Source of the DNA: Candidatus Microgenomates bacterium
GTDB taxonomy: Bacteria > Patescibacteriota > JACPGU01
Direction: 5' to 3'
DNA: 64,000 nt
NCBI GenBank assembly: GCA_016188915.1
Contig: JACPGU010000004.1
Span: 40,198 to 104,197 of the forward strand
The notes below the pieces were generated by a model that was not told the DNA's origin, made no database searches, and saw nothing but the letters and a program-made list of their open reading frames with translations. Positions 14,270 to 44,938 of the stretch are shown one piece after another. The translations under genes were made by a program, and so were the position numbers. Every line of letters begins with the position of its first letter. Position 1 is the first letter of the stretch.

Positions 14270-14283
14270 AGGCAATTTTGCCA

Positions 14284-14314: not shown

Positions 14315-14339
14315 CATAGAAAATTGCGTTGCAAGGACT

Positions 14340-28126: not shown

Positions 28127-28198
28127 GCCGATGTAGTTTAGCGGTAAAACGTCGCCATGGTAAGGCGAAGACCTCGGGTTCGATTCCCGACATCGGCT
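28127..28198 (+). tRNA. tRNA-Thr(GGT), island-borne replacement copy
   Basis: GCCGATG TA GTTT AGCGGTA AAAC G TCGCC ATGGTAA GGCGA AGACC TCGGG TTCGATT CCCGA CATCGGC T. Its anticodon loop is identical to the att core. Confidence 0.75.
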
Positions 28199-28233
28199 TT
28201 AGATAATAAAAGATACTGCCACCAAGGAAGGAG

Positions 28234-29139: not shown

Positions 29140-29162
29140 AATTAATCAAGAAAGGAGTTACT

Positions 29163-29732: not shown

Positions 29733-29920
29733 TCTGAGCTGTCCGTAAAACCATATCAAAAAGATGACAATATTGAACCTATAAAAGTTTCTCAAAAAGT
29801 TTGTACGATAAACAACTGTTTTTGGGACAACAAAAGAGGTTAGACGAATAATTATCTGTCTGGCCTTTCGGTTCTTGGTTCCATCATATTATTATCCATA
29901 GCCCACTTTCTTAGTTTTTG

Positions 29921-30076
29921 GTTTAATGGTAAATTTTAGAGGCTAAGATCGATGTTCTGTGCGATAATGTAGCCAAGATTATTATATCATTTAAATATAA
30001 GAATAAGATTGTTCGTTTTCTTAGCTTAAACAAGGAACAAAGCTTTGATTTTAGCCTCTATTTTTTACCATTAAGC
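29921..30076. repeat. 26-bp imperfect inverted repeat (22/26) flanking a 104-bp segment, just downstream of the serine recombinase
   Basis: gtttaatggtaaattttagaggctaa (29921-29946) against the reverse complement of ttagcctctattttttaccattaagc (30051-30076). The right arm overlaps the stop of the 30051-31091 CDS. Confidence 0.45.
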
Positions 30077-31091
30077 CTAGTTTTTCTATCCTCCTTAGTG
30101 CCCTTTGTTTATCCTTGTTGCTGTATTTTTCTATGGCATCCTTTTGTTGCTTCTCCCATTCGAAAAATCCCTCTCCATGCTCTATCATACTTTTGTCAAG
30201 ATTTAGTATCTGTAGCTCCACCTCTTTCTTTGTTATATCGGGGAGACCTTTAATGTAGTTGTAGAAGTGTTGGGTGTTCTCGTCTTCGTCTGCAATCTTT
30301 TCGATTGCCATCATATATTCTTTTGATAGAAGCTTACCAATCTGCTCAATTTGACTTTTTTCTAAAACAGGAAAAGGATTGTCTATCCCTGTTTTTTTAC
30401 TCCAATCGAACTTTATCGCTCCGATAGGGTATTTTAATAGGTGCAGAGTCACGACCAAAGTTGTTATTTCTCGATAAACATATAACCACTCCAATAAGGT
30501 TTTTTCTTGGAATGTCTGAAAGTTTGATTTCAGGATTCCTAGGTGGTTAGAATATCGATACCCTTTTGTGTGAACATAATTATGTAGAAGGCCTAGTTTA
30601 TTAAACCGTTCGCGAAGATTGAGCTTTTGATCAAATGTTTTAATGTTAGCGTTTGAGTATAGTATGTTCTGGATCCTATCTGCTTTCGGTGTATTTGAGT
30701 CCCAAGAGTCCTTCGACATTAGCCAATCTTTAACTGTTTTGTGCCCATCGTCGTTAATGTTGTAATAAACAGACAGCAATCCTAGTTCAAGGCTACTACG
30801 TAGTGATACGAAAGCTTGCTTATAAAAACCAAAGACCATGAGATTAAATGATATTTGTAGCTCTTCCCATGATTCTATATATGGGAAATAATGACCAGAC
30901 GAAAAATTCTCAATTGTTTGAGGTATTATGTCTCCTATGCCTTGATAAATCCACCCTACATCCTTGATCTCTTCTTTTATCTTTGGGTTTTTTAAGAAAA
31001 AAGCTTCTGTTTCCCTTAAAACAACATTACTTTTTTCCGGATCGTATGTGAACGGCATGTAATTAGCTGGGAATGGAATTGGGTTGCCCAT
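30051..31091 (-). CDS. Hypothetical protein (346 aa), stand-alone island cargo
   Basis: Intact ORF between AT-rich noncoding stretches. No motif I can assign. Confidence 0.4.
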   Translation of the reverse strand: MGNPIPFPANYMPFTYDPEKSNVVLRETEAFFLKNPKIKEEIKDVGWIYQGIGDIIPQTIENFSSGHYFPYIESWEELQISFNLMVFGFYKQAFVSLRSSLELGLLSVYYNINDDGHKTVKDWLMSKDSWDSNTPKADRIQNILYSNANIKTFDQKLNLRERFNKLGLLHNYVHTKGYRYSNHLGILKSNFQTFQEKTLLEWLYVYREITTLVVTLHLLKYPIGAIKFDWSKKTGIDNPFPVLEKSQIEQIGKLLSKEYMMAIEKIADEDENTQHFYNYIKGLPDITKKEVELQILNLDKSMIEHGEGFFEWEKQQKDAIEKYSNKDKQRALRRIEKLGLMVKNRG

Positions 31092-31390
31092 TTATAATTT
31101 GATAATCATCGTTTATTTTATACAGATACCGAATAACAACCGAATATTACTCTTTGAGAGTTCTCGCACGGCAACGGCCGAAAGGGGGCTCAAATGCGAG
31201 TGGGGTGGTTGTTTCGGAGCTTTTGTCTAGGTAGGGTTGTTCTGTAGTAAAACCCTCACGCGTTTTTAGGATGCTGAAAAAAATTCTATAATTTTTTTAA
31301 AGCATTTGTTCACTTAACAAGTGTTTTTAGAACTCTGCTTTCTTTTTACTCCTTCCTCCTCAAAACCCCGAGCGTAAGCTCGCGGGAAGC

Positions 31391-31672
31391 TTATGGTTCT
31401 GAAACCGTATCTACGGTGTCCATGCTGTCTAGAGCATATCCCATATCATCATAACTCTCCCAGGTATACCATTTTGCATCCTCTATGATGCTGTTGGCTT
31501 GTTCTATGTTGTCGTTAGCTTCACTTAACGCACTACGATACTCATCTATAGTGTCTTCCAGAGATGAATTTTGGCTTTGCAGGTCGGATATGGTGTTGTG
31601 GCTACTCCAAAGCCAAATGCCTGCTATCAATACTATAACAATGATTATCGTAGTTTCTTTTTTTTGTTCCAT
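31391..31672 (-). CDS. Small membrane-anchored coiled-coil protein with acidic C-terminus
   Basis: TM helix IIIVIVLIAGIWLW followed by a heptad-like region. Confidence 0.3.
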   Translation of the reverse strand: MEQKKETTIIIVIVLIAGIWLWSSHNTISDLQSQNSSLEDTIDEYRSALSEANDNIEQANSIIEDAKWYTWESYDDMGYALDSMDTVDTVSEP

Positions 31673-31912
31673 AGAGCTATCTATTTATTCCGTAACTTCT
31701 CGAACACACTTTATAGCTTAATTCAAGAACTGAAAGTGTACCAGCTTTTTTATTAGCTATATTAGCTAGCATTTTTTGTTACATGCAATCGTTGTAACCA
31801 TTGGTCTTATCTCAAACCAGCCAAAAAGCAAGACAAATAAAACTACCCACAAAATAGTTGTTAAGTGTTTTTTAATGGGTGTCAAAATATGCTTTATCTT
31901 CATTGTTACCTA

Positions 31913-32218
31913 TTATTTCTTTGGTAGTCGTCCACCGCTACTCAAGCAATCCGCGATAGAGTTATAGGGGGTAAAATTGGTCGTTTTCGAATAATAAGTG
32001 GTGCCTTCTCCATGGCAAATCCCCGTAGTGCTTTTTTTGACAGGAGGGTTTTCGGAGTCGCTACCACTACTAGGAATACTTTGGGTATTCTCTTGCTTGG
32101 CACTGCTATTTTTTGTACTACTTGCCCCTTTTGAATAGGCGAACACCAAACCAGCCATTACTAGGATGGCAACAACTACACCGATTATGACCCTGTATGT
32201 TGTGTTGAGCTTTACCAT
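31913..32218 (-). CDS. Small secreted/anchored protein ending in a conserved two-Cys C-terminal module (ICHGEGTTYY..FTPYN..CLSSGGRLP)
   Basis: N-terminal hydrophobic segment. The C-terminal 40 aa are nearly identical at protein level to the thermonuclease C-terminus, although the DNA has diverged. Confidence 0.45.
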   Translation of the reverse strand: MVKLNTTYRVIIGVVVAILVMAGLVFAYSKGASSTKNSSAKQENTQSIPSSGSDSENPPVKKSTTGICHGEGTTYYSKTTNFTPYNSIADCLSSGGRLPKK

Positions 32219-32445
32219 TTCTTATATCCTTTCTTGCTAGTGAAGGGGTTAAAATTACCTTTTGATGAAAAGTTATTAAACTTTTTCTTATCTGACTTTG
32301 TTTTATAATAAGGCATTACATAGGTGCCTCTCTTGGTGCTATAGCCCTTGACTCTCACATAAGCACTGGCAGAATTTGGCACAGCAAAAATCCCTATAGT
32401 CAGGATAAATAGACCCAAGACGATCGTGCCAATATATCTTTTCAT
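32212..32445 (-). CDS. Small basic secreted protein (Lys/Tyr-rich)
   Basis: Signal peptide MKRYIGTIVLGLFILTIGIFAVPNSASA, then KGYSTKRGTYVMPYYKTKSDKKK... Confidence 0.35.
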   Translation of the reverse strand: MKRYIGTIVLGLFILTIGIFAVPNSASAYVRVKGYSTKRGTYVMPYYKTKSDKKKFNNFSSKGNFNPFTSKKGYKKW

Positions 32446-32506
32446 TTTTCTCCCTTCTGATTATTTGTGGCTGTATTATACACATTAATTAGTAGAAAAG
32501 ATAGCC

Positions 32507-33469
32507 CTATCTTAACGGAAGTCTGCCTCCACTATCTAAGCATTCGTCAATAGTATTGTATGGCGTAAAGTAAATTGTTTGATTGTAATAGGTGGTTCCG
32601 GGAGCATGACAAATGCTGGTCTTACTTTTCTTTACTGGGAGTGTTGTAGTTGTAGTAGAAGGTGGGAGAGTCGGAGTTGTTGGTTGAGTAGCTGTCGGCG
32701 AACTCCCGCCAGATGTATTTTGGGTCGGAGTAGTTGCTTCTTGGGTCGTATCGCCCCCACACGCAGAGGCACTCCAAAGGCCTCTATTTGCCTCTATAGC
32801 TTGTTTCTCCGCCTCTTTGAACTCTTGTTGGTATTTGTAGGGATTGCTCTGATAGGTGTATTCATGAGCGTAGCCGTCTAGGATCATTTTTTTATTAAAG
32901 TTTGTGCCGTCTTCAAGAAAAACAAACCGCAACAATCTCCCGTATTTGTCTCTTTCGTTTTGTGTAAGGTCTTTTTCAAGACGCACTTTTTGTTCTGTAA
33001 GGATCATTTTGGCTCTGTCTGAGGCCTCTTTGCCGAAGCATTGTACTGGCTTGCGAGGATCTACCGTTTCCGGTGTGTCTATACCAACAAGCCGAATGGC
33101 TTCTAGCTTGCCACTTATCTCAACCTTGATAGTGTCGCCATCAGTAACGCTGGCTACTAGATAGAGGGTATCGTCGAGCGAAGTGGTGCTATCTTCTGCT
33201 GACTTCTCTTGCTGATTTTTACTTGCTTCTATATTTGCTTCATCCTTAGTTTGTTTTGGCTGATTAGTGTTTGTGGCACCATTGGTTGTTTTTGGAGCTG
33301 TAAGCCCAACGCCAACGAAAAACACAAAACTGGCAATACCAAAAATTAGGCCTATCGATTTTCTCGCAACACTGCCTTTCAAAATACGAGAGAAAATAGA
33401 TGGCTTAATGAGACCAGCAACCAAGGAGATTAGAGATAGGATAAACAGCAGAAAAAATACAAGAGTCAT
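32507..33469 (-). CDS. Membrane-anchored thermonuclease (staphylococcal-nuclease-like) with a Thr/Pro-rich linker and a C-terminal two-Cys module
   Basis: SNase core motifs (VTDGDTIKVE...IRLVGIDTPET...RDKYGRLLRFVF). N-terminal TM helix. Low-complexity TTPTQ..PTTPTLPPSTTTT linker. C-terminus ...SICHAPGTTYYNQTIYFTPYNTIDECLDSGGRLPLR. Confidence 0.7.
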   Translation of the reverse strand: MTLVFFLLFILSLISLVAGLIKPSIFSRILKGSVARKSIGLIFGIASFVFFVGVGLTAPKTTNGATNTNQPKQTKDEANIEASKNQQEKSAEDSTTSLDDTLYLVASVTDGDTIKVEISGKLEAIRLVGIDTPETVDPRKPVQCFGKEASDRAKMILTEQKVRLEKDLTQNERDKYGRLLRFVFLEDGTNFNKKMILDGYAHEYTYQSNPYKYQQEFKEAEKQAIEANRGLWSASACGGDTTQEATTPTQNTSGGSSPTATQPTTPTLPPSTTTTTLPVKKSKTSICHAPGTTYYNQTIYFTPYNTIDECLDSGGRLPLR

Positions 33470-33480
33470 AAGATTCGTTT

Positions 33481-33921
33481 TTATAGATAGTATTCATAAA
33501 GAAAATATCCGATGACGGCTATCAAAAATCCTATGCCAAGTATCTTCCAAATTGCTCCAACGCCATCACGCTCATTATCGGTCGTTTGATTACTTTGCGA
33601 TACTGATGTTACGGCTTGATTATTTACCTTCGCCTCTTCTTTTTTTGGCTCCGGTATCACAGGCGGAGGAGTAGGATTGACTTGTAGCTGGGGTGTAGTT
33701 GGCAATAATCTTTTTGGCTCTGTACAGCTCGGATAATATGGAGCACAAGTAGCAGAAAATGGCGTGCCATCATTACAGCCACAGGTGCCTACTCCACCAT
33801 GGTGCGAGCAACATCCAGATCGAGCATATGATGTAACCGGAATCGTGATTACAGCAACAAACATGAAAAAACTAGCGATACCTATGTTTAGACGCAATTT
33901 GTTATCGTTCTGGTTATGCAT
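33481..33921 (-). CDS. Cys-rich, Pro-rich small membrane protein
   Basis: N-terminal TM helix, CCSHHGGVGTCGCNDG...CAPYYPSC, and a C-terminal TM helix. Confidence 0.3.
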   Translation of the reverse strand: MHNQNDNKLRLNIGIASFFMFVAVITIPVTSYARSGCCSHHGGVGTCGCNDGTPFSATCAPYYPSCTEPKRLLPTTPQLQVNPTPPPVIPEPKKEEAKVNNQAVTSVSQSNQTTDNERDGVGAIWKILGIGFLIAVIGYFLYEYYL

Positions 33922-35359
33922 TTTTTAAAATAGGAATTTTGAATTCGTTTACCGCCCTGCTGATGCCTTGTTTCATTGATGTGTACATTTTCTTTAGTTT
34001 CAATATTTTCTTGTCCCACATACTTTCAATCTTAATCATAGTCTCTTTTTGGCGACCAACACTCTCATTTATAGATTTTACTTCTGCGTTTATTCTACTG
34101 ATGTTGTCCTCTGTATTTTTCTTTAATACTTCAATCTCTGGATAAAAAGTAGCATTTTGTAATATGGTTTTTTTGCTTTCCTCTAATTGAACGATCTCAT
34201 TTTTTAATCTGCTAATCTTTTTTATACACACTCTACGATGCTTAATATTGCGTAGCTTAAAAGTGATATTTAGAATAATGAGAGTTATCGTTGTAAATAG
34301 TAATTCAATAGGTGCAGTAACGTGTTGCTGTTTGAGGCCAATATGTTTCCACCAATATGTTACAAGTAGGGAAGCTGGTATTGTAAAAATCCTGAAGACT
34401 TGGTTAAAATTATGTGTAATATCAGAACTAGATGCCGACCATAAGATAGCTAAAGTGATTGCCAATATTCCTAAAGCAAAGTTGACGATCAGATAAATAG
34501 CGTAAAAAGCCTTTGCGTAGGTATTGCTATTTTTCGATACAGATGGGTATGTGAGCTCCGCAAGTAAAAGGAGGGAGATTGGGATTACTACACCAAAAAT
34601 TACACACCACATATTCAGGCTTATTTCTGAAAGCCCATAATTGATGAATACCTCTCGTGCGAGTCCAAACATTATGAATACTTCCGCAAGGAATAATATT
34701 ATGGCAGGCAAAGCTATTATAATTTTTATGATACTTTCCGACAATATACTGGACAATTCATTTTGCCTTGCAGATAACCCATGTATCTTTTGTAATAAAT
34801 CCTCCGATTCCTTACTCTTTTCCCTAAACTCTCGTTCTAGGCTCTGTATGGCGATTCGGTAATCGTCTATCTGCTTATTAATTTCGTTGATCTGTTTTTC
34901 TGCTCCGTTAATATGATCTTTATACTCTTTAGACCCCCGCAGTGTCTTTTCTCCGTTCACCATATCATCTAGTGTAGTATCAGTATCTCGCAGGAGTTGC
35001 TTTTTTCGTTCCTCAAGAGCAGAAATATTATTTCTTATCTCCTCGGATTTTCTTTTTAATATACTTTCTGCTTCTTCTATTCTTTTATCAAAATCGTAGC
35101 CTTCTAGTACAGAATTTTGTATCTCGGACGAGAATATCGGCGATAACTTTGTCGCTGATAGATTAGTATTATTTTCTGACAGGCTTCGCCAAATAGCTAT
35201 ACCGGCTCTTTTTATTTTACCCTTCGCCAATCTATATCCCCTGAATTCGTAATCAAATCTATACTTGAGAGCAAAGTATGTCTTGATTAATACAGCTATA
35301 ACTAAAACGGTTGCTAGTCCATATAGAGCCATGATGATGTTGTCTTTCTGTATGATCAT
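33914..35359 (-). CDS. Multi-TM membrane protein with long coiled-coil segments
   Basis: N-terminal TM helix, heptad-rich stretches, 4-5 central TM helices, and a C-terminal coiled coil. Separated by 2 nt from the upstream zinc-ribbon gene. Confidence 0.35.
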   Translation of the reverse strand: MIIQKDNIIMALYGLATVLVIAVLIKTYFALKYRFDYEFRGYRLAKGKIKRAGIAIWRSLSENNTNLSATKLSPIFSSEIQNSVLEGYDFDKRIEEAESILKRKSEEIRNNISALEERKKQLLRDTDTTLDDMVNGEKTLRGSKEYKDHINGAEKQINEINKQIDDYRIAIQSLEREFREKSKESEDLLQKIHGLSARQNELSSILSESIIKIIIALPAIILFLAEVFIMFGLAREVFINYGLSEISLNMWCVIFGVVIPISLLLLAELTYPSVSKNSNTYAKAFYAIYLIVNFALGILAITLAILWSASSSDITHNFNQVFRIFTIPASLLVTYWWKHIGLKQQHVTAPIELLFTTITLIILNITFKLRNIKHRRVCIKKISRLKNEIVQLEESKKTILQNATFYPEIEVLKKNTEDNISRINAEVKSINESVGRQKETMIKIESMWDKKILKLKKMYTSMKQGISRAVNEFKIPILKNA

Positions 35360-35361
35360 GA

Positions 35362-36681
35362 TTAAGAAGTTAATAGTTTATCGTAGATGGTTTTTATCTC
35401 GTCGCGACAAGCTCCGATTGATCCGCTGTCTGTTAGCCCTACGGGTATTATCTGTATACTGTATGGTTTTTGCGTAAAGTTAGCTTTTAGGTTCTGTACC
35501 TGCCATGATCCCAAATAGTAACTAGAAAAATTATCATTTTTTTGTGGGCGACTACCGCATTGCTTGCTGGAGTCTGAACTTTGATCTTGTAGGCACTGCT
35601 CATAGGTCTGTATTCTGTAAATAAATTGTGCTGATATGTAGTTTTTATATCTCGTGCAGTCAGAATAAGTGAGTCCATAAGCATAATAAGCAAAGGGAAA
35701 TTTTATGTTACCTGCAACTATCAATACGCCAGTTATGTTTTTATAGCCCCTATTCACATAACCGTTCATATATTCGTTTATTTTGGCGTAGTAATCAGTA
35801 AAATTAATATCCTCCGGCTTGTTTCCAACATCGCTAAAATAGGCTTTTATTTTTGATACGATATCTTTGTAACCATAGACCGTCATTGTCTTTTCTCTGC
35901 CATCGTCATCGTTCTGTTTGTCATTATCGATTGCATCAAATTCTATTACTTTCGTACCGTTGTGATCGTAATTAGTAATCTTCATAGATATGTTGATTTT
36001 CCTTGTCAGCTTAAGCGATTTATTAGATCCATAAACATCTAAGACCAAGCTATCATTGAACTTAAGTGGTCCCTGCTTATTAAAAATATCCGCGATAACG
36101 CTGTCTGTATCGTCATCACTTAATTTGCTAGATAGGTTTATATATGTAAGCTTGCGTTCCGCGGTTTGGCTATCAACCATCATAAACTCATCTTTGAATT
36201 CTCTATTTAAGCATTGATTGTTTTTACATGAGGCGAGAATTTTATCAACCGAAATATGAATAGGCGTTTTATTGATACTGTCGCTTTCTATTGGTACAAG
36301 ATCAAGGGACGACCCTATTTCATTTCCATTCATTTTATAGTCAAAATATTTTTCCATCCTTTTGGTAAATATGATTTTCATGGTTGTCTTGCTGTTTCCT
36401 CCGGCAAGAATAGTCCTAGCATTGTCATTTTTGTAAATGAATATCCCTCCAAGCAAAACTATCAGGATGAATATCCCGATTATAGTTGCGATAATTAATG
36501 TTTCCTTGATAGTTCCTGTCATTTTCTTACCACAATTAGAACAAAAGGAAGCTTTTTTTACCTCTTTATTACAATTACTGCATTTTATTTTCGTTTTACC
36601 CGTAACCACAGAATAACCACAGTCAACGCAAAAATTGACTCCTTCGTCTAGCTCATGACCACATTGAATACAGTTGGGCAT
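35362..36681 (-). CDS. Double-zinc-ribbon membrane protein with a large extracytoplasmic domain
   Basis: N-terminus CIQCGHE..CVDCG...CSNCNKE..CSNCGKK, one TM helix, and an extracellular region of about 330 aa. Confidence 0.4.
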   Translation of the reverse strand: MPNCIQCGHELDEGVNFCVDCGYSVVTGKTKIKCSNCNKEVKKASFCSNCGKKMTGTIKETLIIATIIGIFILIVLLGGIFIYKNDNARTILAGGNSKTTMKIIFTKRMEKYFDYKMNGNEIGSSLDLVPIESDSINKTPIHISVDKILASCKNNQCLNREFKDEFMMVDSQTAERKLTYINLSSKLSDDDTDSVIADIFNKQGPLKFNDSLVLDVYGSNKSLKLTRKINISMKITNYDHNGTKVIEFDAIDNDKQNDDDGREKTMTVYGYKDIVSKIKAYFSDVGNKPEDINFTDYYAKINEYMNGYVNRGYKNITGVLIVAGNIKFPFAYYAYGLTYSDCTRYKNYISAQFIYRIQTYEQCLQDQSSDSSKQCGSRPQKNDNFSSYYLGSWQVQNLKANFTQKPYSIQIIPVGLTDSGSIGACRDEIKTIYDKLLTS

Positions 36682-36879
36682 GCGTGTAATCTTAGATAAA
36701 ATAAGAGATTAGAGTATTGCTAAGGACTACCGTGGTTGCCATAACTCTAAGTTATACCTATGATAAGCTATTATTTAGATAATTGCAAGGCCCGGAGAGC
36801 GTAAAGGCAGATGATGCCCACAGCAATCCTATAGTTTAAGAAAAAAGCCTTTTATCCGAGTCATGATTGACGGTTTAGC

Positions 36880-37416
36880 CTAATTGTTTTGGCTATCAAG
36901 ATTTTCCAGTGCCCTTAGTGCCTCCTCTCTCTCGTATGGGTTGAACGACTGGATCGTTATAGGCTCTTTTCCTGTGATGTCAGATAACTGATGATGGCTG
37001 GTTTTAGTCACCACTAACTGATATTTTCTATCTTTACATATAATCTCGTAATCACCATTAAGGAAATCTAAAAATTCACTCAAGTCGCCTTTGTCTATCA
37101 ATGTGTGATAACTGCAATAACTTCCCTTTTCATCAATTCTTGGGCGACTTTGGATTATGATATGATTTGTCTCCATATCGCGAACAGCGAAGAATGCTCC
37201 TGTAGTTAGCCATTGCCCACAGCGATTTTCTGAAATACCGCCATAATCCTTTGGGGCGTATCGATAATACATCATCATTTTTTCTAGATCGTACCCGTTC
37301 TTAACAGACATAAGAGCGTCCCATTCTTTGCGACTAAAAACCTTAATATCATCTTGGGTATCGCCAGCCTTTTCTTCCTTATTTGGTTTCATGAGGCCTT
37401 CTTTTAGTAATAGCAA
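36880..37416 (-). CDS. Hypothetical protein (last gene of a 5-gene island operon)
   Basis: ORF overlaps the upstream gene, suggesting translational coupling. Confidence 0.3.
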   Translation of the reverse strand: MLLLKEGLMKPNKEEKAGDTQDDIKVFSRKEWDALMSVKNGYDLEKMMMYYRYAPKDYGGISENRCGQWLTTGAFFAVRDMETNHIIIQSRPRIDEKGSYCSYHTLIDKGDLSEFLDFLNGDYEIICKDRKYQLVVTKTSHHQLSDITGKEPITIQSFNPYEREEALRALENLDSQNN

Positions 37417-37705
37417 GATTGACTATGAAGATAACGCTAGCCACCACATTAAAAGTCGCCCATATTTCTCTTTGGAAGTAAAAAGAGGCGATGGGGTTAA
37501 AAATGATAGCGATAACAGCGAATATCCAAAGCCAGAGTTGATCTTTCTCCTCGTATTCACTATACGCAGAATACGCGGAGACACCACAAACTAACCATCG
37601 CAGGAACTGATAGTAGAAATACGGCCAGTGCAAAACGGCTATCAATAAAGCGATAGCCGAAATAGCCTTTAAGGTGGCTAAGTAATTGGTATCGTGTTTA
37701 TTCAT
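37379..37705 (-). CDS. Small 3-TM membrane protein
   Basis: Hydrophobic helices. ATGA start/stop overlap with the upstream gene. Confidence 0.3.
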   Translation of the reverse strand: MNKHDTNYLATLKAISAIALLIAVLHWPYFYYQFLRWLVCGVSAYSAYSEYEEKDQLWLWIFAVIAIIFNPIASFYFQREIWATFNVVASVIFIVNLAITKRRPHETK

Positions 37706-38259
37706 GAGGGCACATAGATGTTTGCTATATTAAAAAGTTCTTGCATCATGGGGATTTCTTTGTATTCAGCCAAGAGAGAGACCTGACGCGATATACCTCC
37801 CTCCCTAAACATCTCTCTGGCTTTCTTTGTTTTGCCTAAATGATGGAGAGAGCCGGCGTATAGAAAGACGATATCTGCCATCGGAAGGCCATCGAAACCA
37901 TAAGGTTGGGCACCTATTTTCATATCATGAATATCGCAAGTAAGCTTTTCGCATTTCTCATATTCGCCGAGGCAATATAGGGCAACGGCACTGAAGAAGT
38001 AGGGGAGATAAAAGTTCGGATGCTCTTTCGTCATTCCCTCCATTGCTCCCAACGCTTTTTGGAAGTTTTCTTTACTGTGATCGCGTGAAAAGGAATCCAT
38101 CACCTTAGACATCCTAATATATCCCCTGATAAGATCAGATTTATCATTTGACATAAGGGAGTTGAATATGGAGTATTGGTCTTTCTTGGCGGGCATAAGA
38201 TTATTTTTATTCTTTTTGGTTGTAATGGTTATGAGGGGAAACCAGCTCTTTATTTTCAA
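37702..38259 (-). CDS. Helical (TPR-like) hypothetical protein
   Basis: The true start is probably the internal Met near 38196. Shows an alpha-helical repeat character. Confidence 0.3.
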   Translation of the reverse strand: MKIKSWFPLITITTKKNKNNLMPAKKDQYSIFNSLMSNDKSDLIRGYIRMSKVMDSFSRDHSKENFQKALGAMEGMTKEHPNFYLPYFFSAVALYCLGEYEKCEKLTCDIHDMKIGAQPYGFDGLPMADIVFLYAGSLHHLGKTKKAREMFREGGISRQVSLLAEYKEIPMMQELFNIANIYVPS

Positions 38260-38956
38260 TAGGCCAGTTAAGCTTGTCTTCTCGCCATAGAAGAGAGCTT
38301 ATTTGGATGCCTAGATTGTTTTTCTCTTGCCCATAATCTAGGTCATCTATAACCAAAGCTCTTCCTTTTTTGTCTAATTCTTTCGTAACCTTCAGCTTGT
38401 TATCGAGCGGACTGTCCCTTTTTATTTTTTTCCTGTCTAGCCCAATCCGTGAAAAAGTAGCACCTACATTATTCGGAGCAACAGAAAAAACATTCTCATA
38501 ATCAAAGGCCAGAATTTTTCCGTCACACAAAAGATTTAAAGAATCAGAAATCATTTTCAGATATTCTTGGTTAACGTCTGACAATATCCCCATCTTCAAT
38601 CTAGGAAACTGTAGTCTGATAAAACATAATAAAGGGACTATACTTTCTCTAAAAATAATTTTCTTGTCCTTCGGCACTCCCAAAGTACCCCAAACATCCC
38701 ATAATAGATACTGATCTTTTATCTTTAAGTTTTTAAACCTCCTCTCAACATTTTCTGTAACTGATTTGCAAAAAGCTTTTTCTTCTTCAAAAATAACATC
38801 AATTAGCCCGTTTGTATATGTATCGTCCAAAGAAGGGGCATTCTTTTTTATTCTTTGTGATATTTTTTGAAATATTTGCTTGTTTACTTTTTCATCCAAA
38901 AAATCATTCCAAAAACCTTTTGGTTTTTCTTGTTTTGGTTCAAAAGACTTTCTCAT
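38207..38956 (-). CDS. Hypothetical protein with degenerate HAD-hydrolase-like motifs
   Basis: LWDVWGTLG (motif-I-like, second Asp replaced), GILSDVN (motif II-like), and ALVIDDLDYG (motif IV-like). Tentative. Confidence 0.25.
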   Translation of the reverse strand: MRKSFEPKQEKPKGFWNDFLDEKVNKQIFQKISQRIKKNAPSLDDTYTNGLIDVIFEEEKAFCKSVTENVERRFKNLKIKDQYLLWDVWGTLGVPKDKKIIFRESIVPLLCFIRLQFPRLKMGILSDVNQEYLKMISDSLNLLCDGKILAFDYENVFSVAPNNVGATFSRIGLDRKKIKRDSPLDNKLKVTKELDKKGRALVIDDLDYGQEKNNLGIQISSLLWREDKLNWPIENKELVSPHNHYNQKE

Positions 38957-38982
38957 TTATTACGCCCCACTTACCTTGCTAG

Positions 38983-39318
38983 TCATACACTTTTATTTTC
39001 TGAATAAATCATAACTCCGCCTATCAGCCCGAAAATTATCATTGAAATGAGTTCTGTCGTATTGTCGTCCATTCCCATGAATGATAGTACGGTGCCTATT
39101 ATTGGCGGAATGATAAAAAGGATTACCAATTTTATTATAGTCTGAATATGTTTTTTATGCACCCTTGTCCTTTGCTCTATTTCCTGTTTTATGCCTTCAG
39201 AACTGCGTCCCAAAGTGCACAAAGCATTGTCATTATCCCCATATTTTTTTCTCAATTCCAATAACTCTTTTAATTTTCTTTTATTCTCCGCTCCTTGTGT
39301 TTCTTCCCAGCCAAACAT
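38983..39318 (-). CDS. Small 2-TM membrane protein (first gene of the operon)
   Basis: Charged N-terminus followed by two TM helices. Confidence 0.3.
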   Translation of the reverse strand: MFGWEETQGAENKRKLKELLELRKKYGDNDNALCTLGRSSEGIKQEIEQRTRVHKKHIQTIIKLVILFIIPPIIGTVLSFMGMDDNTTELISMIIFGLIGGVMIYSENKSV

Positions 39319-39485
39319 ATTTTTGTGTAAAATAATATTTTGGATCGAACAAAGACTCCTTCGTTACGCAGATAATTAATGCCAGAAAAATCTGAAGATT
39401 CTTAAATAAAAGTTTTTGATAGGACTGCCTATACGGCATATAAGAATCAGAATCGTTGGAATAAGAACAAAGAACGGATATATTT

Positions 39486-41027
39486 TTAGCTTACTGTTAT
39501 GTTAGTCCCTGATTGTGGCTTAGTTACAGAAGGCGTATTGGTTATATTCTTAGAAGACGGACTGTTGTTGACCGGATTACTAGAGGCTTCATTTTTCACT
39601 TCAATTTGCCAGTATATTCCTAAATCTTGCATCCATGTTATCTCTTCCGTAACAGGAGTGAAATACGCCTTATAAATACCGGGATCCTTTGGTGCTCTAA
39701 TCATAAATTCAAATCTGGTATGCCAACCTGGTCTGATTTCATCATGAAGCATTGTTATAGCCCTATTACCTGACAGCCACGAATCATAGTCGTAAAACTC
39801 TGAGATATAATCTCTATGTTGACTAGAAGTTCCGAATTTTGATCCACTACCAAGTTTTATAGCATTTATGCAATCTTTATACCATGTGGCCTTGCCAGTA
39901 TTTTTTACTTCTATCCAAACATTTGCTCTTTCTCCTGGATACAAAGTTTCGGGATAAGGAGATTGTTTTATTATTTTGAAGCTATATGAAGATGGCGGAT
40001 ATTGGGGGCAGGTTTTTGTGGATTTTGGTTTACTCGTGGTAGTCACAGAATCTGTGTTACTAGTGTTGTTGCCAGTATTGGGCGTGCTATTATTTGTGTT
40101 GTCTGTAGTGTCAATTTTATTTACACAGTTATCTGTAGCCTTGTCATATGTCCCACCACCTGACCCGAGCATACATATAACGCTTTTCTGCACATCCTCT
40201 TGTGCATTATCTCCTCCCTTGGTTATTTCAATTCCATGCCAGTCATATGTTTCTTCTCCAAAAGCATATTTATACCAAAAATTTATCGTTGCCACTGGTA
40301 TAACATATCCCTCTAGTGTATATCCTATGTTTTGATCTCTGATGCCAGCACTGGTTAGGCCAATAAATTTGCCTTTTTTGTCAAAAGCCGCTCCTCCTGA
40401 GCTACCAAAACTAATTTGAGCATTGGTAACAATTGTCGGCAGTCCTTTATAGGAATAATCAAGTCTTGTTATAAATCCTTTAGCGTAGTTCATATTTCCA
40501 TTTGCATAGTCAGGAAATCCTAGCGTTTTAACTTCATCGTTAATATTCGAGCTATCTCCCAAATCATAGCCATATGTAGAAAACTTAATCGAGTCAAACT
40601 GCAACATGGTGTCACTGATAGGTATATTTGCAATGCTCTGCCATTTACCATCTGCCAACTTGTAATTTATATGAAGTATTGCTATATCAAGCTGTTCATT
40701 ATACTTGGCTGGCACTGTAACCGCCAAGCCTAGATTATGATAGGCATCTGCCAGAAAATCGCACTTGAGTGATTCGTAAGTGCTGGCTTTGTGACAGATT
40801 ACGGCCTTATAGTCGTTCGGATATTTTATTATTTTCTCTGCAACATGATAATTAGTAAGAATTGACAAGTCTGTATATACGCCAGACCCCCATTCTTGTA
40901 AGTTCCAGTTTTTATCAAAAATCTGTATTTGTACCACGGAGCGAACATTGGAATCGGTAACTTGTGCACGGACAAGATTAGGGAATGCTAGCCCGACAGC
41001 AATCATCAAAATGATTATTTTCTTCAT
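39486..41027 (-). CDS. Secreted trypsin-like (S1) serine protease with a Thr/Asn-rich linker and a C-terminal domain
   Basis: Signal peptide MKKIIILMIAVGLAFPNLVRAQ. Catalytic His (TNYHVAEK), Asp (DIAILHI) and Ser (GSSGGAAF). Confidence 0.65.
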   Translation of the reverse strand: MKKIIILMIAVGLAFPNLVRAQVTDSNVRSVVQIQIFDKNWNLQEWGSGVYTDLSILTNYHVAEKIIKYPNDYKAVICHKASTYESLKCDFLADAYHNLGLAVTVPAKYNEQLDIAILHINYKLADGKWQSIANIPISDTMLQFDSIKFSTYGYDLGDSSNINDEVKTLGFPDYANGNMNYAKGFITRLDYSYKGLPTIVTNAQISFGSSGGAAFDKKGKFIGLTSAGIRDQNIGYTLEGYVIPVATINFWYKYAFGEETYDWHGIEITKGGDNAQEDVQKSVICMLGSGGGTYDKATDNCVNKIDTTDNTNNSTPNTGNNTSNTDSVTTTSKPKSTKTCPQYPPSSYSFKIIKQSPYPETLYPGERANVWIEVKNTGKATWYKDCINAIKLGSGSKFGTSSQHRDYISEFYDYDSWLSGNRAITMLHDEIRPGWHTRFEFMIRAPKDPGIYKAYFTPVTEEITWMQDLGIYWQIEVKNEASSNPVNNSPSSKNITNTPSVTKPQSGTNITVS

Positions 41028-41069
41028 ATTTTCTTGTTACTTGTATAAAATATAAAATAAAATTTGCAA

Positions 41070-41180
41070 CAAAAAGGGTCGCCCGATACAGCGGAGTCCC
41101 TTGCGAGCCTCCATGCACACTTTCGAGTGCATACCATATGCATGATACCGATCAGACGACCGTTTATATGCATGTGGTTT
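41070..41180. other. GC-richer structured noncoding segment (candidate small RNA or regulatory hairpins)
   Basis: ATGCAC..GTGCAT hairpin, repeated CATATGCATG / TATATGCATGTGG, ending in GGTTTTTTTGACC. Sits in the 300-bp gap between divergent genes. Confidence 0.2.
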
Positions 41181-41325
41181 TTTTGACCATGCTATCAACA
41201 AATAAGCTGATAGTTTAGGTCTTTTTTACGAATTGTAGCTATATTGTAGCATGGCTAAAAAGCAATGTAAAGTATCAAGGATTTAGTGATATACTTAGAA
41301 TAGAAATATTATTTTTTGTTTTAAT

Positions 41326-41547
41326 ATGAAATATCTACTCGTGTCAGATGATAATCATAAGTACCCAGTACAGGTAATGGATGTATCACAAAGACCACCG
41401 AAATTGGTAAGAAAATTTCCTCCCGGACAGGAGGAGCAAGCAATGGAGTGGGTAACTGAACTGTATGAGAAAGAAGAGAAACAGAAAGAGCAGAAGCAAA
41501 TTACGACTAACCCCGACATCCATGGAGGCAAAGCCATTGAGAATTAG
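41326..41547 (+). CDS. Small hypothetical protein (73 aa)
   Basis: ORF only, acidic C-terminus. Overlaps the next ORF. Confidence 0.2.
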   Translation: MKYLLVSDDNHKYPVQVMDVSQRPPKLVRKFPPGQEEQAMEWVTELYEKEEKQKEQKQITTNPDIHGGKAIEN

Positions 41548-42190
41548 AAAGAATATAGCTGAAGAGACATTTCAGATCCGAGTATCTGACTTTGGCGGTA
41601 AAATCCTAAGGGGCGATCAACGCTCTGAACGGTTTGGCTACTTTACCGCAAAAGGAAATAACGGCATTTTGCAGTTTATTACTTATAGAATAGAGGTAAA
41701 TGACGATTTGCCTTCTATACACCTACATCATTCCACAGAACGAGGAAAAGTCGATTCTTTGCATTTTTCACAGGTGGATCTAGCGAAGATACCATCGTAT
41801 TTTGGTCTTCGCCCCTACCTTAGGTGCCAGCATTGTGGCGATAATGCCTTAGTCCTCTATAAGCCCTCAGGAGCTGACCAATTTCTCTGTCGCAAGAAAG
41901 AGTGTGGCAATATTACTTACGCTTCATCTAATCAAAGTAAGGCTCTCTCGGGACATATAGTGCAATTAGAGAGACTCCATAAGTTATTTGGTATGCGAGA
42001 TGAGATCTCCAAGATATTCTATCGAGGAATGATGACAAAGAAAGCCAAACGCTATATCAACTGGCAGAATAAATGGGGCATGCATGGTATTGATAAGGAG
42101 ATAGCACATTATGCTGAACAACAATATATCCACGCTCGCTCTAAAGTGCTCCAAAATATACAAAGAGAATTGTCTTCCCAGTCGATTTAG
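41465..42190 (+). CDS. Hypothetical zinc-finger protein (CQHCG...CRKKECGN)
   Basis: A CxxC...CxxxxC module. Sits just upstream of the second integrase. Start uncertain. Confidence 0.3.
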   Translation: MRKKRNRKSRSKLRLTPTSMEAKPLRIRKNIAEETFQIRVSDFGGKILRGDQRSERFGYFTAKGNNGILQFITYRIEVNDDLPSIHLHHSTERGKVDSLHFSQVDLAKIPSYFGLRPYLRCQHCGDNALVLYKPSGADQFLCRKKECGNITYASSNQSKALSGHIVQLERLHKLFGMRDEISKIFYRGMMTKKAKRYINWQNKWGMHGIDKEIAHYAEQQYIHARSKVLQNIQRELSSQSI

Positions 42191-42582
42191 CCGTTCTCTG
42201 TAGATTAAGATTCTGGCAAATATTTTATTGGCAATCTCGGTTGTGTAAAGGTGAAAAGAAACAGAATATAGTTGAGCCCAACGGACGACCTGGGGTTCTG
42301 TTGTTTTATTTTGATTAGAATTTGTGGTATTATTCTCAATAGATTTAGACAACTAAGAGCTTTTTTAGCGACATAAATGTTGTCCAAAAATGGCTCTTGC
42401 GTAATGGCTGGGACATTGCTAACATACTGGCAGAAACCGGTGCTCGAATTATGAATATGAAAACTTGAGGTGTAGTAATCTGCTTTCTTTAAGAAAGCCT
42501 CTTGCACTTCACGATTCAATTCGTAATCCGAGCTTTTTTATTATTAAGCAAGAGAGGAGGACATAGCAAACTGGTCGATAAA

Positions 42583-42658
42583 ATATGAATATAAAATTAT
42601 GAATATCTAAATATGAATATGGGAGATTTATACTATTAAAGTTAGGAGATATTCATAT
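42583..42658. repeat. Four copies of the 10-bp motif ATATGAATAT (three direct at 14-bp spacing, one inverted) directly upstream of the second integrase start
   Basis: Read at 42583, 42597 and 42611, and inverted at 42649. Candidate arm-type or operator sites. Confidence 0.5.
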
Positions 42659-42659
42659 C

Positions 42660-43607
42660 ATGACTGATAAATCAAATAAAACATTGTTGCAATGGCACGA
42701 AGAGTTTTGTAGCATGCAACAACATGTTCGTGGATTGCGACCAGCCACTATTGATAGCTTCAGGAATACTTTCAGGGTATTCTCCAAGCTAACCTCAGAA
42801 GATCTTATGCCAGGTATGCTCACTAATGCTTTGATAATTCAATTTTTTACAAAATTGAACACAAGAGAGCGGAAGGTAGGCGTTACCGTTAAATCGGGGA
42901 TAAAGACAAGCACGACGAGCACTTATTACAGTAAGCTAAAGCCATTTTTTGACTATTTGGTCAGGCAGAAAATTATTGAGATAAGTCCATTTGACGGAAT
43001 AGATAAGCCAAAAGTATCGTATGAGGACGTAAAATATCTCAAAAAAGAACAAGTAGAAAAGATATTAACAGCAATCGCTCTTAATGTTGATTGGAAAAAT
43101 GATTTCATTAAAAGCAGAAATCTTGCAATGATCCACATATTATTGTTTACAGGCATCAGAAAAGGTGAGCTGTTAAATCTTAAAGTAACTGATTTTGATT
43201 TTAATACTGGGTTAGTAAAAGTAAATGGGCAAACATCAAAATCAAAAATAGATAGAGAAGTGCCGATAAACACTCGGATCATAAAGATAATCAAAAGCTA
43301 TCTTGCTGACAGAAAGGCATCTAACTGTCCTTTTTTCTTTGTTGGAGAAAGAGGAGAGCGTTTCACCGAATCGGGGCTAAAACACCTGATTGAGAAAATT
43401 AAAGACGCAAGCAATATTAGGTTTCATATTCATCAGTTCCGACATACTTTCGCAATGAATATGGTGAACAAGGGTTGCGATATAGCCAGACTCCAATGTC
43501 TAATGGGGCACAAGGATATTAGACAAACATCCGTATATCTTCGAAAAATGCCCTCAGTTATAGTTAGAAATACGATTGAGTTACTTGATATTGATACCTT
43601 GGTGTAG
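42660..43607 (+). CDS. Tyrosine-type site-specific recombinase/integrase (second copy)
   Basis: C-terminal HQFRHTFAMNMVNKGCDIARLQCLMGHKDIRQTSVYL. N-terminal SAM-like core-binding domain. Lies 250 bp from attR. Confidence 0.8.
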   Translation: MTDKSNKTLLQWHEEFCSMQQHVRGLRPATIDSFRNTFRVFSKLTSEDLMPGMLTNALIIQFFTKLNTRERKVGVTVKSGIKTSTTSTYYSKLKPFFDYLVRQKIIEISPFDGIDKPKVSYEDVKYLKKEQVEKILTAIALNVDWKNDFIKSRNLAMIHILLFTGIRKGELLNLKVTDFDFNTGLVKVNGQTSKSKIDREVPINTRIIKIIKSYLADRKASNCPFFFVGERGERFTESGLKHLIEKIKDASNIRFHIHQFRHTFAMNMVNKGCDIARLQCLMGHKDIRQTSVYLRKMPSVIVRNTIELLDIDTLV

Positions 43608-43621
43608 AGCAATAAAGGTCA

Positions 43622-43740
43622 TTTAAAGGATTGATGTCGGGAAGTGCTTATGATAAGATATAAAGAACAATATCAGTAAAATATTAATAAGCGATAGCGG
43701 TATCAATCCTTTATGGCCTTTGAGCTATTAAAGGATTTTA
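43622..43740. repeat. Three copies of TAAAGGATT (one inverted) between int2 and attR. A similar AAGGATTTT occurs next to attL at 28021.
   Basis: tttaaaggattgat, atcaatcctttat and ttaaaggatttta. Candidate integrase or excisionase arm sites. Confidence 0.4.
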
Positions 43741-43857
43741 TTATCAAAGATAGAGGAATAAGAACAGGTCACCGGCTACTATCGGCCAAGTGGTCAAAAA
43801 TATGAAGTCCGTGCCTATACAGAGCCAAGAACGCGAGAAGATGGGTAGACCTCATAA

Positions 43858-43899
43858 ATGGTAAGGAAAAGGTCACCGGTTCAAATCCGGTCGATGGCT
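43858..43899 (+). pseudogene. 3' half of split tRNA-Thr(GGT): ATGGTAA core (attR), anticodon stem 3' strand, variable loop, T-arm, acceptor
   Basis: ATGGTAA GGAAA AGGTC ACCGG TTCAAAT CCGGT CGATGGC T. It complements the 5' half at 27957-27994 exactly. Confidence 0.75.
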
Positions 43900-43902
43900 T
43901 TG

Positions 43903-43954
43903 GCCACCTTAGCTCAGTCGGTTAGCCTCCGGCCCGGAGGGAGCAACCGCCTTG
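43903..43954 (+). pseudogene. 5' half of a second, decayed split tRNA (Thr-like body) with a 15-nt hairpin inserted in the D-loop
   Basis: GCCACCT TA GCTC AGTCGGTTAG [CCTCCGGCCCGGAGG] GAGC A ACCGC CTTG... The acceptor pairs with AGGTGGC at 44094-44100. Confidence 0.5.
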
Positions 43955-43972
43955 CCCGCCCGCCAAAAACTT

Positions 43973-44045
43973 GCCATCCTAGCTCAGTTGGTAGAGCAGC
44001 CGCCTTGTAAGCGGCAGGTCATCGGTTCGAGCCCGATGGATGGCT
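43973..44045 (+). tRNA. tRNA-Thr(TGT), intact, nested between the two halves of the decayed tRNA
   Basis: GCCATCC TA GCTC AGTTGGTA GAGC A GCCGC CTTGTAA GCGGC AGGTC ATCGG TTCGAGC CCGAT GGATGGC T. Confidence 0.75.
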
Positions 44046-44057
44046 TTGGCAAGTCGG

Positions 44058-44101
44058 GCGCGGTAAGCGGTAGGTCGTCGGTTCGAGCCCGACAGGTGGC
44101 T
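44058..44101 (+). pseudogene. 3' half of the second split tRNA (anticodon stem 3' strand, variable loop, T-arm, acceptor)
   Basis: ...CGGTAA GCGGT AGGTC GTCGG TTCGAGC CCGAC AGGTGGC T. Confidence 0.5.
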
Positions 44102-44146
44102 TTAGGACAAATTAATACTTAATACTTAATACTTAATACAAACTAT

Positions 44147-44317
44147 ATGGCCAGCAAGAAAAAAGGACCGAGAAATATGGTGACGATGGAATGCGCGGAA
44201 TGTAAGGAAAAAAATTATTTTACTTCTAAAAACAAACGCAATACGGCGGAAAAATTGGAATTGAAAAAAAGATGTAAAAGGTGCGGCAAGGTGACAAAAC
44301 ATAAGGAAGGAAAATAG
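44147..44317 (+). CDS. rpmG: 50S ribosomal protein L33
   Basis: MASKKKGPRNMVTMECAECKEKNYFTSKNKRNTAEKLELKKRCKRCGKVTKHKEGK is an L33 zinc ribbon. Below the ORF-track length cutoff. The 70-aa minus-strand ORF at 44126-44338 is spurious. Confidence 0.8.
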   Translation: MASKKKGPRNMVTMECAECKEKNYFTSKNKRNTAEKLELKKRCKRCGKVTKHKEGK

Positions 44318-44423
44318 TAAAAAATTTCTAATTTCCAATTATTAATTTCTAGAAAAATCCCAAATTCTACTTACGCAATGGGTCTTTTTGAGATTTTGTA
44401 TTTGTGTTTGAGATTTTAAAGTG

Positions 44424-44494
44424 TAGGGGTGTCGTTCAACGGTAGGACGCTGGTCTCCAAAACCAGTAACGTGGGTTCGATTCCTACCACCCCT
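44424..44494 (+). tRNA. tRNA-Trp(CCA)
   Basis: AGGGGTG acceptor stem, anticodon loop CTCCAAA, T-loop TTCGATT, ...CACCCCT G. Conserved rpmG-tRNA-Trp synteny. Confidence 0.75.
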
Positions 44495-44938
44495 GCTAGG
44501 AATGTAAAAATTATCTAAAAGAACGGCTAGATGGCCGTTCTTTTAGGTGGGGATTTTCTCCACAATTTTTTCTCCAAAAGTATCTTGCTATAAATTGTCA
44601 ATCGCCTATAATGAAAATGTAGAGATACACATAGTTTGCAACACGTTGATAGATTATGTTGTATTCAGAATTGAATACAGTAATTGTTTTGTTTATGGTA
44701 AAAAAATTACCACCCAAAAATTCAAAAGACAAGATGCCAGGTTTGATTTGCCGGTTGATATATTGCTAGAAAGGAATATCATAAAGAAGATGCCAAAAGA
44801 ATAGCCGAAATCAGCCTGGCTGCTTCTTTTTAAGTATTTATAGGAGGGAACAATTCTATTATCAAAAAACACCCAGAGGATAAAGCCTATTCTTTGGGTT
44901 TTTTAAAAAAAACATAAAGTTATCAATAATTTTTACAG

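Follow-up and report, generated by a model that had tools for sequence, protein, structure and literature searches.

Why should a complete tRNA gene sit inside another gene for the same tRNA? The question is raised by a 64,000-nucleotide stretch of Candidatus Microgenomates bacterium DNA (contig JACPGU010000004.1, positions 40,198 to 104,197; hereafter, the window), in which an intact tRNA-Thr(UGU) gene lies between the two halves of a second tRNA-Thr(UGU) gene. We think it probable, at roughly 60%, that the locus is a DNA-level replacement cassette: a complete foreign tRNA-Thr(UGU) gene, together with a pair of arms that can base-pair with each other, has been inserted into the resident tRNA-Thr(UGU) gene between its nucleotides 35 and 36. 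We infer that the inner gene is the working one and the outer gene a pseudogene. Nested loci of this kind recur in other genomes of the ultra-small Patescibacteria, and together they suggest an undescribed kind of mobile tRNA cassette.

The insert (43955-44063) is 109 nt long and consists of an 18-nt arm, the inner tRNA gene and a second 18-nt arm; only 36 nt of it are not tRNA. It lies on the plus strand, in the orientation of its host gene, and parts anticodon nucleotides 35 and 36 of the latter or, because a G is common to both junctions, nucleotides 34 and 35; here and below, several junction assignments and Sprinzl positions were counted by eye. An initial annotation had read the flanking pieces as a single Thr tRNA that was broken, within its anticodon loop, into two halves. 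Indeed, when joined without a 15-nt GC hairpin that occupies the outer D-loop, they give a perfect tRNA-Thr(tgt) cloverleaf in ARAGORN, which mis-calls the cloverleaf when the hairpin is kept. The same annotation placed a complete replacement tRNA-Thr(TGT) between the halves, which ARAGORN and Rfam both recognize and which has the anticodon of the outer gene, and delimited the 5' half correctly; however, its 3' half, begun at 44058 instead of 44064, took in 6 nt of the right arm, and its estimate of about 105 bp for the intervening piece fell short of the measured 109 nt. The junctions read CTTG^CCCG.. and ..GCGG^TAA, with no direct repeat or target duplication, and the insert holds no open reading frame (ORF) and no integrase gene.

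Could the nest have arisen in the computer? The source is a metagenome-assembled genome (MAG), and its tRNA genes are repetitive sequences; that two tRNA alleles of a mixed population were fused into a chimera nevertheless has a negligible chance of being the explanation, given that an independent Logan assembly (L116) is 100% identical to the window over 19.8 kb, that many independent samples and assemblers return the same architecture (L126/L127/L128, L119/L120 and L136-L139), and that a mis-join could not create specific complementary arms.

Which of the two genes is at home here? The outer gene is the native gene of the window's lineage. The closest relative found, a Patescibacteria MAG (L001) whose L33 protein is 83% identical to the window's, shares with it the gene order holB-like gene, TPR protein gene, tRNA cluster, rpmG and tRNA-Trp, and at the syntenic locus (3081-3152) carries an uninterrupted tRNA-Thr(tgt) gene (Rfam, 73.2 bits). 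This gene equals the joined outer halves of the window except in the D-loop, where the window has three extra nucleotides and the hairpin. Since the two are identical outside the D-loop, the pairing of the outer halves is not a matter of chance, the outcome that would have undone the initial annotation; its impression that the outer gene looks decayed is borne out by the extra hairpin, which the intact orthologue lacks. The inner and outer genes differ by four base-pair swaps (5-68, 7-66, 27-43 and 49-65), all compensatory; the inner gene is therefore best seen not as a copy made on the spot but as one that evolved separately, in another lineage, and looks functional. Sampling of the window's own lineage is thin and amounts to this one relative: apart from L001, a search with rpmG returned only a 395-bp contig and the window's own organism (L116), and a search with the holB-like protein returned only itself.

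What do the arms do? In every case they pair, and the arms by themselves account for -10 to -29 kcal/mol. Helix P1 joins a C-rich 5' strand to a G-rich 3' strand; helix P2 joins the last 4-8 nt of the leader to the trailer; together, in predicted folds, they make a 15-20-bp stalk stacked on the acceptor stem of the inner tRNA. In the window, too, the GC-rich ends of the insert, which had been expected to pair, form P1 and P2 in minimum-free-energy folds; they are imperfect inverted repeats, and a terminal inverted repeat feature is thus present. The two helices evolve differently: the 5' strand of P1 keeps the motif CCCGCC across cassettes, whereas the sequence of P2 varies yet stays complementary (leader/trailer pairs ACTTGCCA/TGGCAAGT, GCCTATGC/GCATAGGC, GACACGCC/GGCGTGTC and GGCTTCGT/ACGAAGCC). 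When the flank duplexes of the 258 tRNAs in all fetched DNA are ranked, the eight strongest all belong to nested tRNAs, which also predominate in the upper ranks (-14 to -29.5 kcal/mol; the median is -5.6). Other strong duplexes flank a spirochaete tRNA-Trp embedded between rpmG and secE (L007-L034); there, leader/trailer stems of 10-15 bp differ in sequence among species while keeping their complementarity, and look like the processing stalk of an operon-embedded tRNA. Because such covarying stems also flank an operon-embedded tRNA, the arms can be understood as a processing device: judging from these folds, they probably act primarily at the RNA level, to fold and release the inner tRNA.

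A different RNA-level role for the arms would be that of an intron or of split-tRNA leaders: the inner piece would be cut out, the outer halves would be joined or would work as a two-piece tRNA, and both tRNAs would be functional. For this it can be said that predicted folds bring the halves together through the arms, that a number of outer genes remain perfect (L084 and L099), and that true group I introns sit at exactly 35/36 in Patescibacteria (PMC13011429). Yet the fold places a 4-nt/3-nt internal loop (CUUG/UAA, by eye) between the anticodon stem and P1, and a bulge-helix-bulge intron, with its two 3-nt bulges set apart by a 4-bp helix, was rejected because this junction geometry, again by eye, does not fit. 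Cleavage by RNase P and RNase Z yields 3'-OH and 5'-P ends and would not remove the arms from the anticodon loop. Neither a group I intron nor another ribozyme was matched at a permissive threshold: an Rfam cmscan at E<=10 over 43600-44600 gave tRNA matches only and no group I intron core, and a scan of the whole window at gathering threshold gave no match to an intron model. Outer genes carry hairpin insertions, truncations and unpaired stems (the window, L001, L123, L124, L126 and L133), and the inner copy makes the outer one redundant. Splicing or split function is thus very unlikely, and so is the suggestion of the initial annotation that the arms zip the halves into a working outer tRNA: related outer genes decay freely, and there is neither bulge-helix-bulge geometry nor a ribozyme.

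If the nest is a replacement cassette, is it alone? A metagenome scan with a pattern made of the shared arm motif and a tRNA start returned 35 loci, of which some 30 are chance matches in GC-rich DNA and five, on the low-GC contigs L084, L081, L099, L111 and L103, are real; a scan of viral contigs with the arm-plus-tRNA pattern gave no match. The arm motif CCGCCCGCCAAA .. GGGC flanks nested tRNAs in other genomes, with no integrase nearby (Table 1). Inner and outer anticodons are identical in every nest in which the outer anticodon can be read, and the orientation is identical in every nest. Each arm type keeps to an insertion point of its own, one to 35/36 and another to D-stem 23/24 (by eye).

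Two sites have been seen both filled and empty: the outer gene of the window against its uninterrupted L001 orthologue, and the Thr(cgt) locus of Candidatus Magasanikbacteria, which the adjacent rotamase gene allowed to be traced in relatives. In the latter, native alleles occur uninterrupted, T1 alone in L121 and T2 alone in L129. From tRNA-Gly through the spacer to the Thr gene T1, L084 and L121 show 100% identity, apart from a clean insertion of 111 nt that carries T2 and interrupts L084 at ATCG^TAA (35/36), with no target duplication. Nesting is reciprocal: a T2-type gene is interrupted in its D-stem by a second type of cassette, which carries T1 between arms CCTGCCCGCC TTTGCCTAA .. CAGGCGATGGCAGGCGGG (L122, L123 and L124); the same T1 cassette interrupts a third allele in L119, and both types are combined in layers in L081 and L126. 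Nests can also grow deeper. In the intergenic nest that follows the rotamase gene in L136-L139, the anticodon loop of Gly1 is broken by a cassette carrying Gly2, whose D-arm is in turn broken by a cassette carrying an intact Gly3. As for wider exchange at the Thr(cgt) locus, the contigs L119 and L084 agree in their neighbouring genes (the rotamase proteins are 100% identical), and still their tRNA-Gly and tRNA-Thr alleles and nests are wholly different, with the breakpoint right at the start of tRNA-Gly; this points to a very recent recombinational replacement of the whole tRNA block.

That the cassettes move can be read from a comparison of cargo and host. Copies of the T2 cassette differ at 3/74 positions (by eye), whereas their hosts, T1, T1' and T1'', differ by compensatory changes in the D-stem and acceptor stem; cassette copies are thus more alike than the genes that house them, and the cassette has therefore moved relative to its host. 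Insertion at the same position in distinct functional alleles likewise argues for site-specific mobility and not for one ancestral accident. A hybrid in L133, in which a native leader is followed by T2 and then by the right arm of the cassette, shows recombination between native and cassette copies.

What becomes of an invaded gene? Outer genes range from perfect (L084 and L099) to badly damaged, with substitutions that break the acceptor stem (L123 and L124), insertions in the T-loop (L126), and multiple hairpin insertions and truncations (L126, L133 and L081). In 705 kb of low-GC DNA, CCGCC-N3-GGCGG hairpins occur only inside the anticodon loops of tRNA genes that are already disrupted, and in L081, 39-nt tRNA-less copies of the arms (X units) stand on both sides of the cassette. 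More speculatively, these hairpins and X units may be scars of superseded cassettes, and the D-loop hairpin of the window is possibly the scar of an earlier one; it has no second copy in the window, among 42 GC-rich perfect hairpins in 64 kb.

Remnants of other kinds are found in L001. The tRNA-Thr(ggt) gene of this relative is nested in the remains of native Thr(GGU), between arms CCGCCCGCCAAAGCCTAT and TTGCATAGGCGGGCAAGC, and the D-arm of the outer gene carries a double hairpin. This nest is one of several tRNA-gene remnants in the tRNA cluster of L001 (3030-3970 and 4300-4440), as is a 13-nt duplicate of the Thr(UGU) 5' end with a hairpin. Two insertions split the tRNA-Tyr gene, a double hairpin at 34/35 and a GIY-YIG ORF with a replacement Tyr gene, and there is a 43-nt repeat; an orphan tRNA-Trp 3' half lies behind an intact Trp gene, and the downstream flank is repeated. 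The tRNA order is Thr-Thr-Tyr in L001 and Tyr-Thr-Thr in the window.

Precise insertion without target duplication, at fixed points, is also what a non-autonomous transposon would produce: the arms would be the ends of a hairpin or inverted-repeat element with tRNA cargo, acted upon by a transposase or recombinase encoded elsewhere (a single-strand HUH/Y1 enzyme of the IS200/IS605 or REP kind, an IS110-type enzyme or a serine recombinase) that inserts into tRNA stem-loops, and selection would keep only cognate insertions. The conservation of P1 across different cargo tRNAs and distant lineages, where P2 merely covaries, suits such ends, as do arms without a tRNA (the 39-nt X units of L081 and CCGCC-AAA-GGCGG hairpins). 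Nevertheless, we judge this explanation rather unlikely. No transposase was found beside any copy; the exact arm motif occurs once in the window, at 43956, with short matches elsewhere at chance level, and no cassette copies were found at sites other than tRNA genes. The two arms make one joint hairpin, unlike the subterminal hairpin at each end of IS200/IS605 elements, and there is no evident way in which a transposon would acquire cognate cargo for each new target tRNA species. A fixed target, a tetra- or pentanucleotide 3' of which such elements insert, would suit the Thr cassettes, whose bottom strand reads TTAC at the junction, but not the Arg, Gly and D-arm cassettes. Three further identities were rejected: a terminal-inverted-repeat transposon with target duplication (no duplication), an attC-like cassette of an integron (the ends, inspected by eye, lack a GTT/AAC core) and a dispersed REP-like family in the window (one arm motif, and a D-loop hairpin without a second copy).

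How, then, might a replacement cassette work and spread? The inner tRNA would be transcribed in the same orientation and in the same transcript as the outer gene, and be freed by cuts of RNase P and RNase Z, which RNase III would possibly precede by cutting the 15-20-bp stalk; such release from a composite transcript, which the initial annotation had considered, is plausible. The stalk would also guard against mispairing between the inner tRNA and its homologues, the outer halves, which would be dead and then decay. A break in an uninterrupted tRNA gene, repaired from a cassette-bearing allele, would spread the cassette by homing; alternatively, plain homologous recombination would suffice, with the conserved tRNA halves as homology arms. 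Only cassettes that carry a tRNA of the same anticodon would survive: cognate cargo would be obligatory because the cassette replaces an otherwise essential gene that it destroys. Repeated invasion would build nests of nests.

The most likely nuclease is a candidate from related insertions. Homologous GIY-YIG ORFs of 81-87 amino acids, with mutual identities of 38-55%, occur in the same genomes within other insertions that disrupt tRNA genes, in tRNA-Tyr (L001), tRNA-Gln (L119) and tRNA-Lys (L124 and L126), and each of these insertions adjoins an intact replacement tRNA. The Tyr and Gln insertions are at 41/42 (by eye), with GC hairpins at 34/35 or 35/36. In L119 (4370-4960), the ORF lies within the disrupted tRNA-Gln, upstream of the replacement Gln gene; in L124 (6575-6935) and L126 (6562-6925), 15-bp perfect inverted repeats flank it, with the full tRNA-Lys gene on one side and an 11-nt duplicate of the 5' end of that gene on the other. 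A free-standing GIY-YIG ORF is also present downstream of an intact tRNA-Gln in L129 and L133. Nuclease-stimulated homing, with the tRNA halves as homology arms, would be the most economical model, and it is the least secure part of the account. A broader claim, which we put forward only tentatively and hold to be doubtful in its full extent, is that the cassettes represent protein-free mobile elements of a new class, in which a conserved GC-rich hairpin bears a tRNA gene at its tip: such an element would invade the anticodon loop or D-arm of its cognate tRNA gene, replace its function and act as a gene drive among Patescibacteria tRNA alleles, reciprocal invasion leaving nests and hairpin scars; a trans-acting, structure-specific enzyme, for which the small GIY-YIG proteins would be the candidate, would recognize stem-loops of tRNA genes.

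Several observations weigh against a mobile replacement cassette. It is from their sequences that the inner gene is presumed to be working and the outer dead, and the perfect outer halves in L084 and L099 fit a recent insertion and continued function equally well. A simple consensus scan for sigma-70 promoters upstream of the nested locus gave no plus-strand match. The left-arm motif CCGCCCGCCAAA is common to the window and to the cassettes in L001, L084, L081, L099, L103 and L126, but the left-arm 12-mer was itself the metagenome search pattern, so that only the comparison of the window with L001 gives an unbiased view of its conservation. There is no nuclease or recombinase gene within the cassette, and tblastn with four GIY-YIG proteins found no homologue in the window; the window copy is therefore either fixed or dependent on a factor encoded elsewhere. 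Finally, the inner tRNA at times bears the target sequence of its host, such as the T1 D-arm in L119; a simple homing model in which the occupied allele is immune is therefore not strictly valid.

Does a larger element stand behind the small one? Just upstream of the nest, a 15.9-kb island (27995-43857) splits the native tRNA-Thr(GGU) gene in the anticodon loop and has not rebuilt it. The split had been noticed earlier, and ARAGORN finds tRNA-Thr(ggt) when 27957-27994 is joined to 43865-43899. The 7-nt direct repeat ATGGTAA stands at 27988 and 43858. With its two integrases, its repeat and a Thr(GGU) gene of its own, this island follows the same logic of disruption and replacement, and reductive genomes lose dispensable DNA: the 109-bp insert could be what deletion has left of another integrase-borne island, in tRNA-Thr(UGU), whittled down to the indispensable replacement tRNA. 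We find this distinctly unlikely. No direct repeat of the anticodon loop accompanies the 109-bp insert; its 18-nt arms are symmetric and complementary, their motif recurs in other genomes away from any integrase, and the ends of the island bear no such arms; independent deletions would not converge on the same architecture. An integrase-type insertion was accordingly rejected for the 109-bp unit, which has no repeated core, and applies only to the neighbouring island; the earlier idea of a remnant of an older insertion like that island is probably wrong, the island having a 7-nt repeat and the insert none.

Within the island, about 100 nt upstream of the true Thr(GGU) 3' half, a weak third copy of this 3' part (TAA-GAACAGGTCACCGGCTACTAT-CGGCCAAGTGG, 43759-43794) aligns with a score just above the best of 500 shuffles and may be an older or element-borne att remnant; the island also contains a match to the Rfam LOOT RNA (41093-41221, minus strand; 68.5 bits against a gathering score of 46.4). 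Elsewhere in the window, ARAGORN reports a tRNA-Pro(ggg) at 24311-24384 (minus strand), where the Rfam tRNA model stays below its gathering score, and G+C content is raised to 0.48-0.50 in a block at 12000-17000, compared with about 0.39 elsewhere.

Table 1. Parts of the nested and split tRNA-Thr genes in the window, and nested tRNA genes at other loci
Feature	Locus	Positions	Strand	Remarks
Native tRNA-Thr(GGU), 5' part	window	27957-27994	+	left end of island; ends with ATGGTAA
Island-borne replacement tRNA-Thr(GGU)	window	28127-28198	+	ARAGORN; Rfam 71.2 bits
Two tyrosine-integrase genes of the island	window	28234-29139 and 42660-43607		
Native tRNA-Thr(GGU), displaced 3' part	window	43858-43899	+	right end of island; starts with repeated anticodon loop ATGGTAA
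Outer (native) tRNA-Thr(UGU), 5' part, nt 1-35	window	43903-43954	+	reads GCCACCT TA GCTC AGTCGGTTAG(CCTCCGGCCCGGAGG)GAGC A ACCGC CTTG, D-loop hairpin in brackets; now a putative pseudogene half
15-nt GC hairpin CCTCCGGCCCGGAGG in outer D-loop	window	43926-43940	+	with 3 extra D-loop nt; missing from intact L001 orthologue
Cassette left arm CCCGCCCGCCAAAAACTT	window	43955-43972	+	C-rich P1 strand, A-run, then leader
Inner intact tRNA-Thr(UGU)	window	43973-44045	+	ARAGORN; Rfam tRNA 68.3 bits; taken as the functional gene
Cassette right arm TTGGCAAGTCGGGCGCGG	window	44046-44063	+	trailer complementary to leader, then G-rich P1 strand
Outer (native) tRNA-Thr(UGU), 3' part, nt 36-73	window	44064-44101	+	reads TAA GCGGT AGGTC GTCGG TTCGAGC CCGAC AGGTGGC T; ARAGORN on joined halves
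Thr(GGT) in Thr(GGT)	L001			
Thr(CGT) in Thr(CGT)	L084, L081, L126			
Arg(CCG) in Arg(CCG)	L099, L111			
Gly(CCC) in Gly(CCC)	L126, L133			
Gly(gcc) with the same arms	L103			beside a Gly 5' fragment
Three-level Gly(CCC) nest	L136-L139			four independent assemblies

Do known systems offer a precedent? The nearest in host and site are group I introns, which occupy the anticodon loops of bacterial tRNAs and, in Patescibacteria, sit at 35/36 among other positions (Nakagawa et al., 2026; PMC13011429). Like the cassette, they lie in the orientation of the host gene and mostly lack a homing endonuclease gene (PMC13011429). Unlike them, the cassette, with its 36 nt of non-tRNA sequence, has no ribozyme core, and the damage is offset not by splicing but by a second complete tRNA gene, after which the host gene decays. 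A GIY-YIG nuclease tied to tRNA genes is known from phage T4, in which SegB is a freestanding homing endonuclease of the tRNA gene region and break repair favours inheritance of the neighbouring tRNA genes (PMC2330249). SegB, however, does not lie inside a tRNA gene and involves no nested or disrupted tRNA; in turn, the window cassette has no ORF, and the GIY-YIG proteins found here, of only 81-87 amino acids, are putative nucleases. Disrupted tRNAs of Archaea have bulge-helix-bulge introns at non-canonical positions, or are split, with GC-rich complementary leaders (PMC4033280, PMC3218864). The halves are likewise parted in the anticodon loop or D-arm, with GC-rich complementary sequences beside the break; but the host here is a bacterium, there is no bulge-helix-bulge, the halves decay, and the intervening sequence is a tRNA of the same anticodon.

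More distant parallels concern the target and the wrapper. As Williams is said to have described in 2002, tyrosine-integrase elements attach at tRNA genes and cross over within the anticodon loop. The 15.9-kb island of the window is of this kind, and such tRNA-targeting integrative elements resemble the cassette in their anticodon stem-loop target and in the preservation of tRNA function; classical ones, however, rebuild the gene through a 3' part that they carry and leave a direct repeat, whereas the cassette has neither repeat nor integrase and brings a whole tRNA gene. Small palindromic repeats (REP/BIME, Rickettsia palindromic elements and MITEs) invade RNA and protein genes and, like the arms, are short, GC-rich, imperfect and noncoding palindromes in structured genes, a likeness extended by the tRNA-less arms seen here; but they are dispersed in many copies, whereas the cassettes are confined to cognate tRNA genes, carry a functional-looking gene at the tip and make no target duplication. 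Leader/trailer stalks around rRNAs and some operon-embedded tRNAs are RNase III substrates; in them, as in the spirochaete tRNA-Trp, the flanks of a mature RNA pair in a long covarying stem. These processing stalks are fixed features of a locus, whereas the stalk of the cassette travels with its tRNA, as a unit, into another gene. In none of these nearest systems does a whole cognate tRNA, wrapped in arms that pair with each other, enter a tRNA gene which then decays, and no description of tRNA-in-tRNA nesting was found in the searchable literature, coverage of which is incomplete.

What would such cassettes mean for their hosts? Two ways of tolerating insertions into tRNA genes have been known: self-splicing, as in group I introns, and rebuilding from a partial copy, as in integrative elements. 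The nested loci point to a third recurring solution, in which the gene is destroyed and a complete replacement is delivered in a self-pairing wrapper, a natural design for embedding a tRNA in, and releasing it from, a longer transcript. If this solution is general, tools unprepared for orphan halves, layered pseudogenes and replacement genes of foreign descent would mis-annotate the tRNA complements of Patescibacteria; tRNA fragments and GC hairpins near tRNA genes would form a readable record of invasions; and tRNA alleles could spread horizontally, as selfish units, in minimal genomes.

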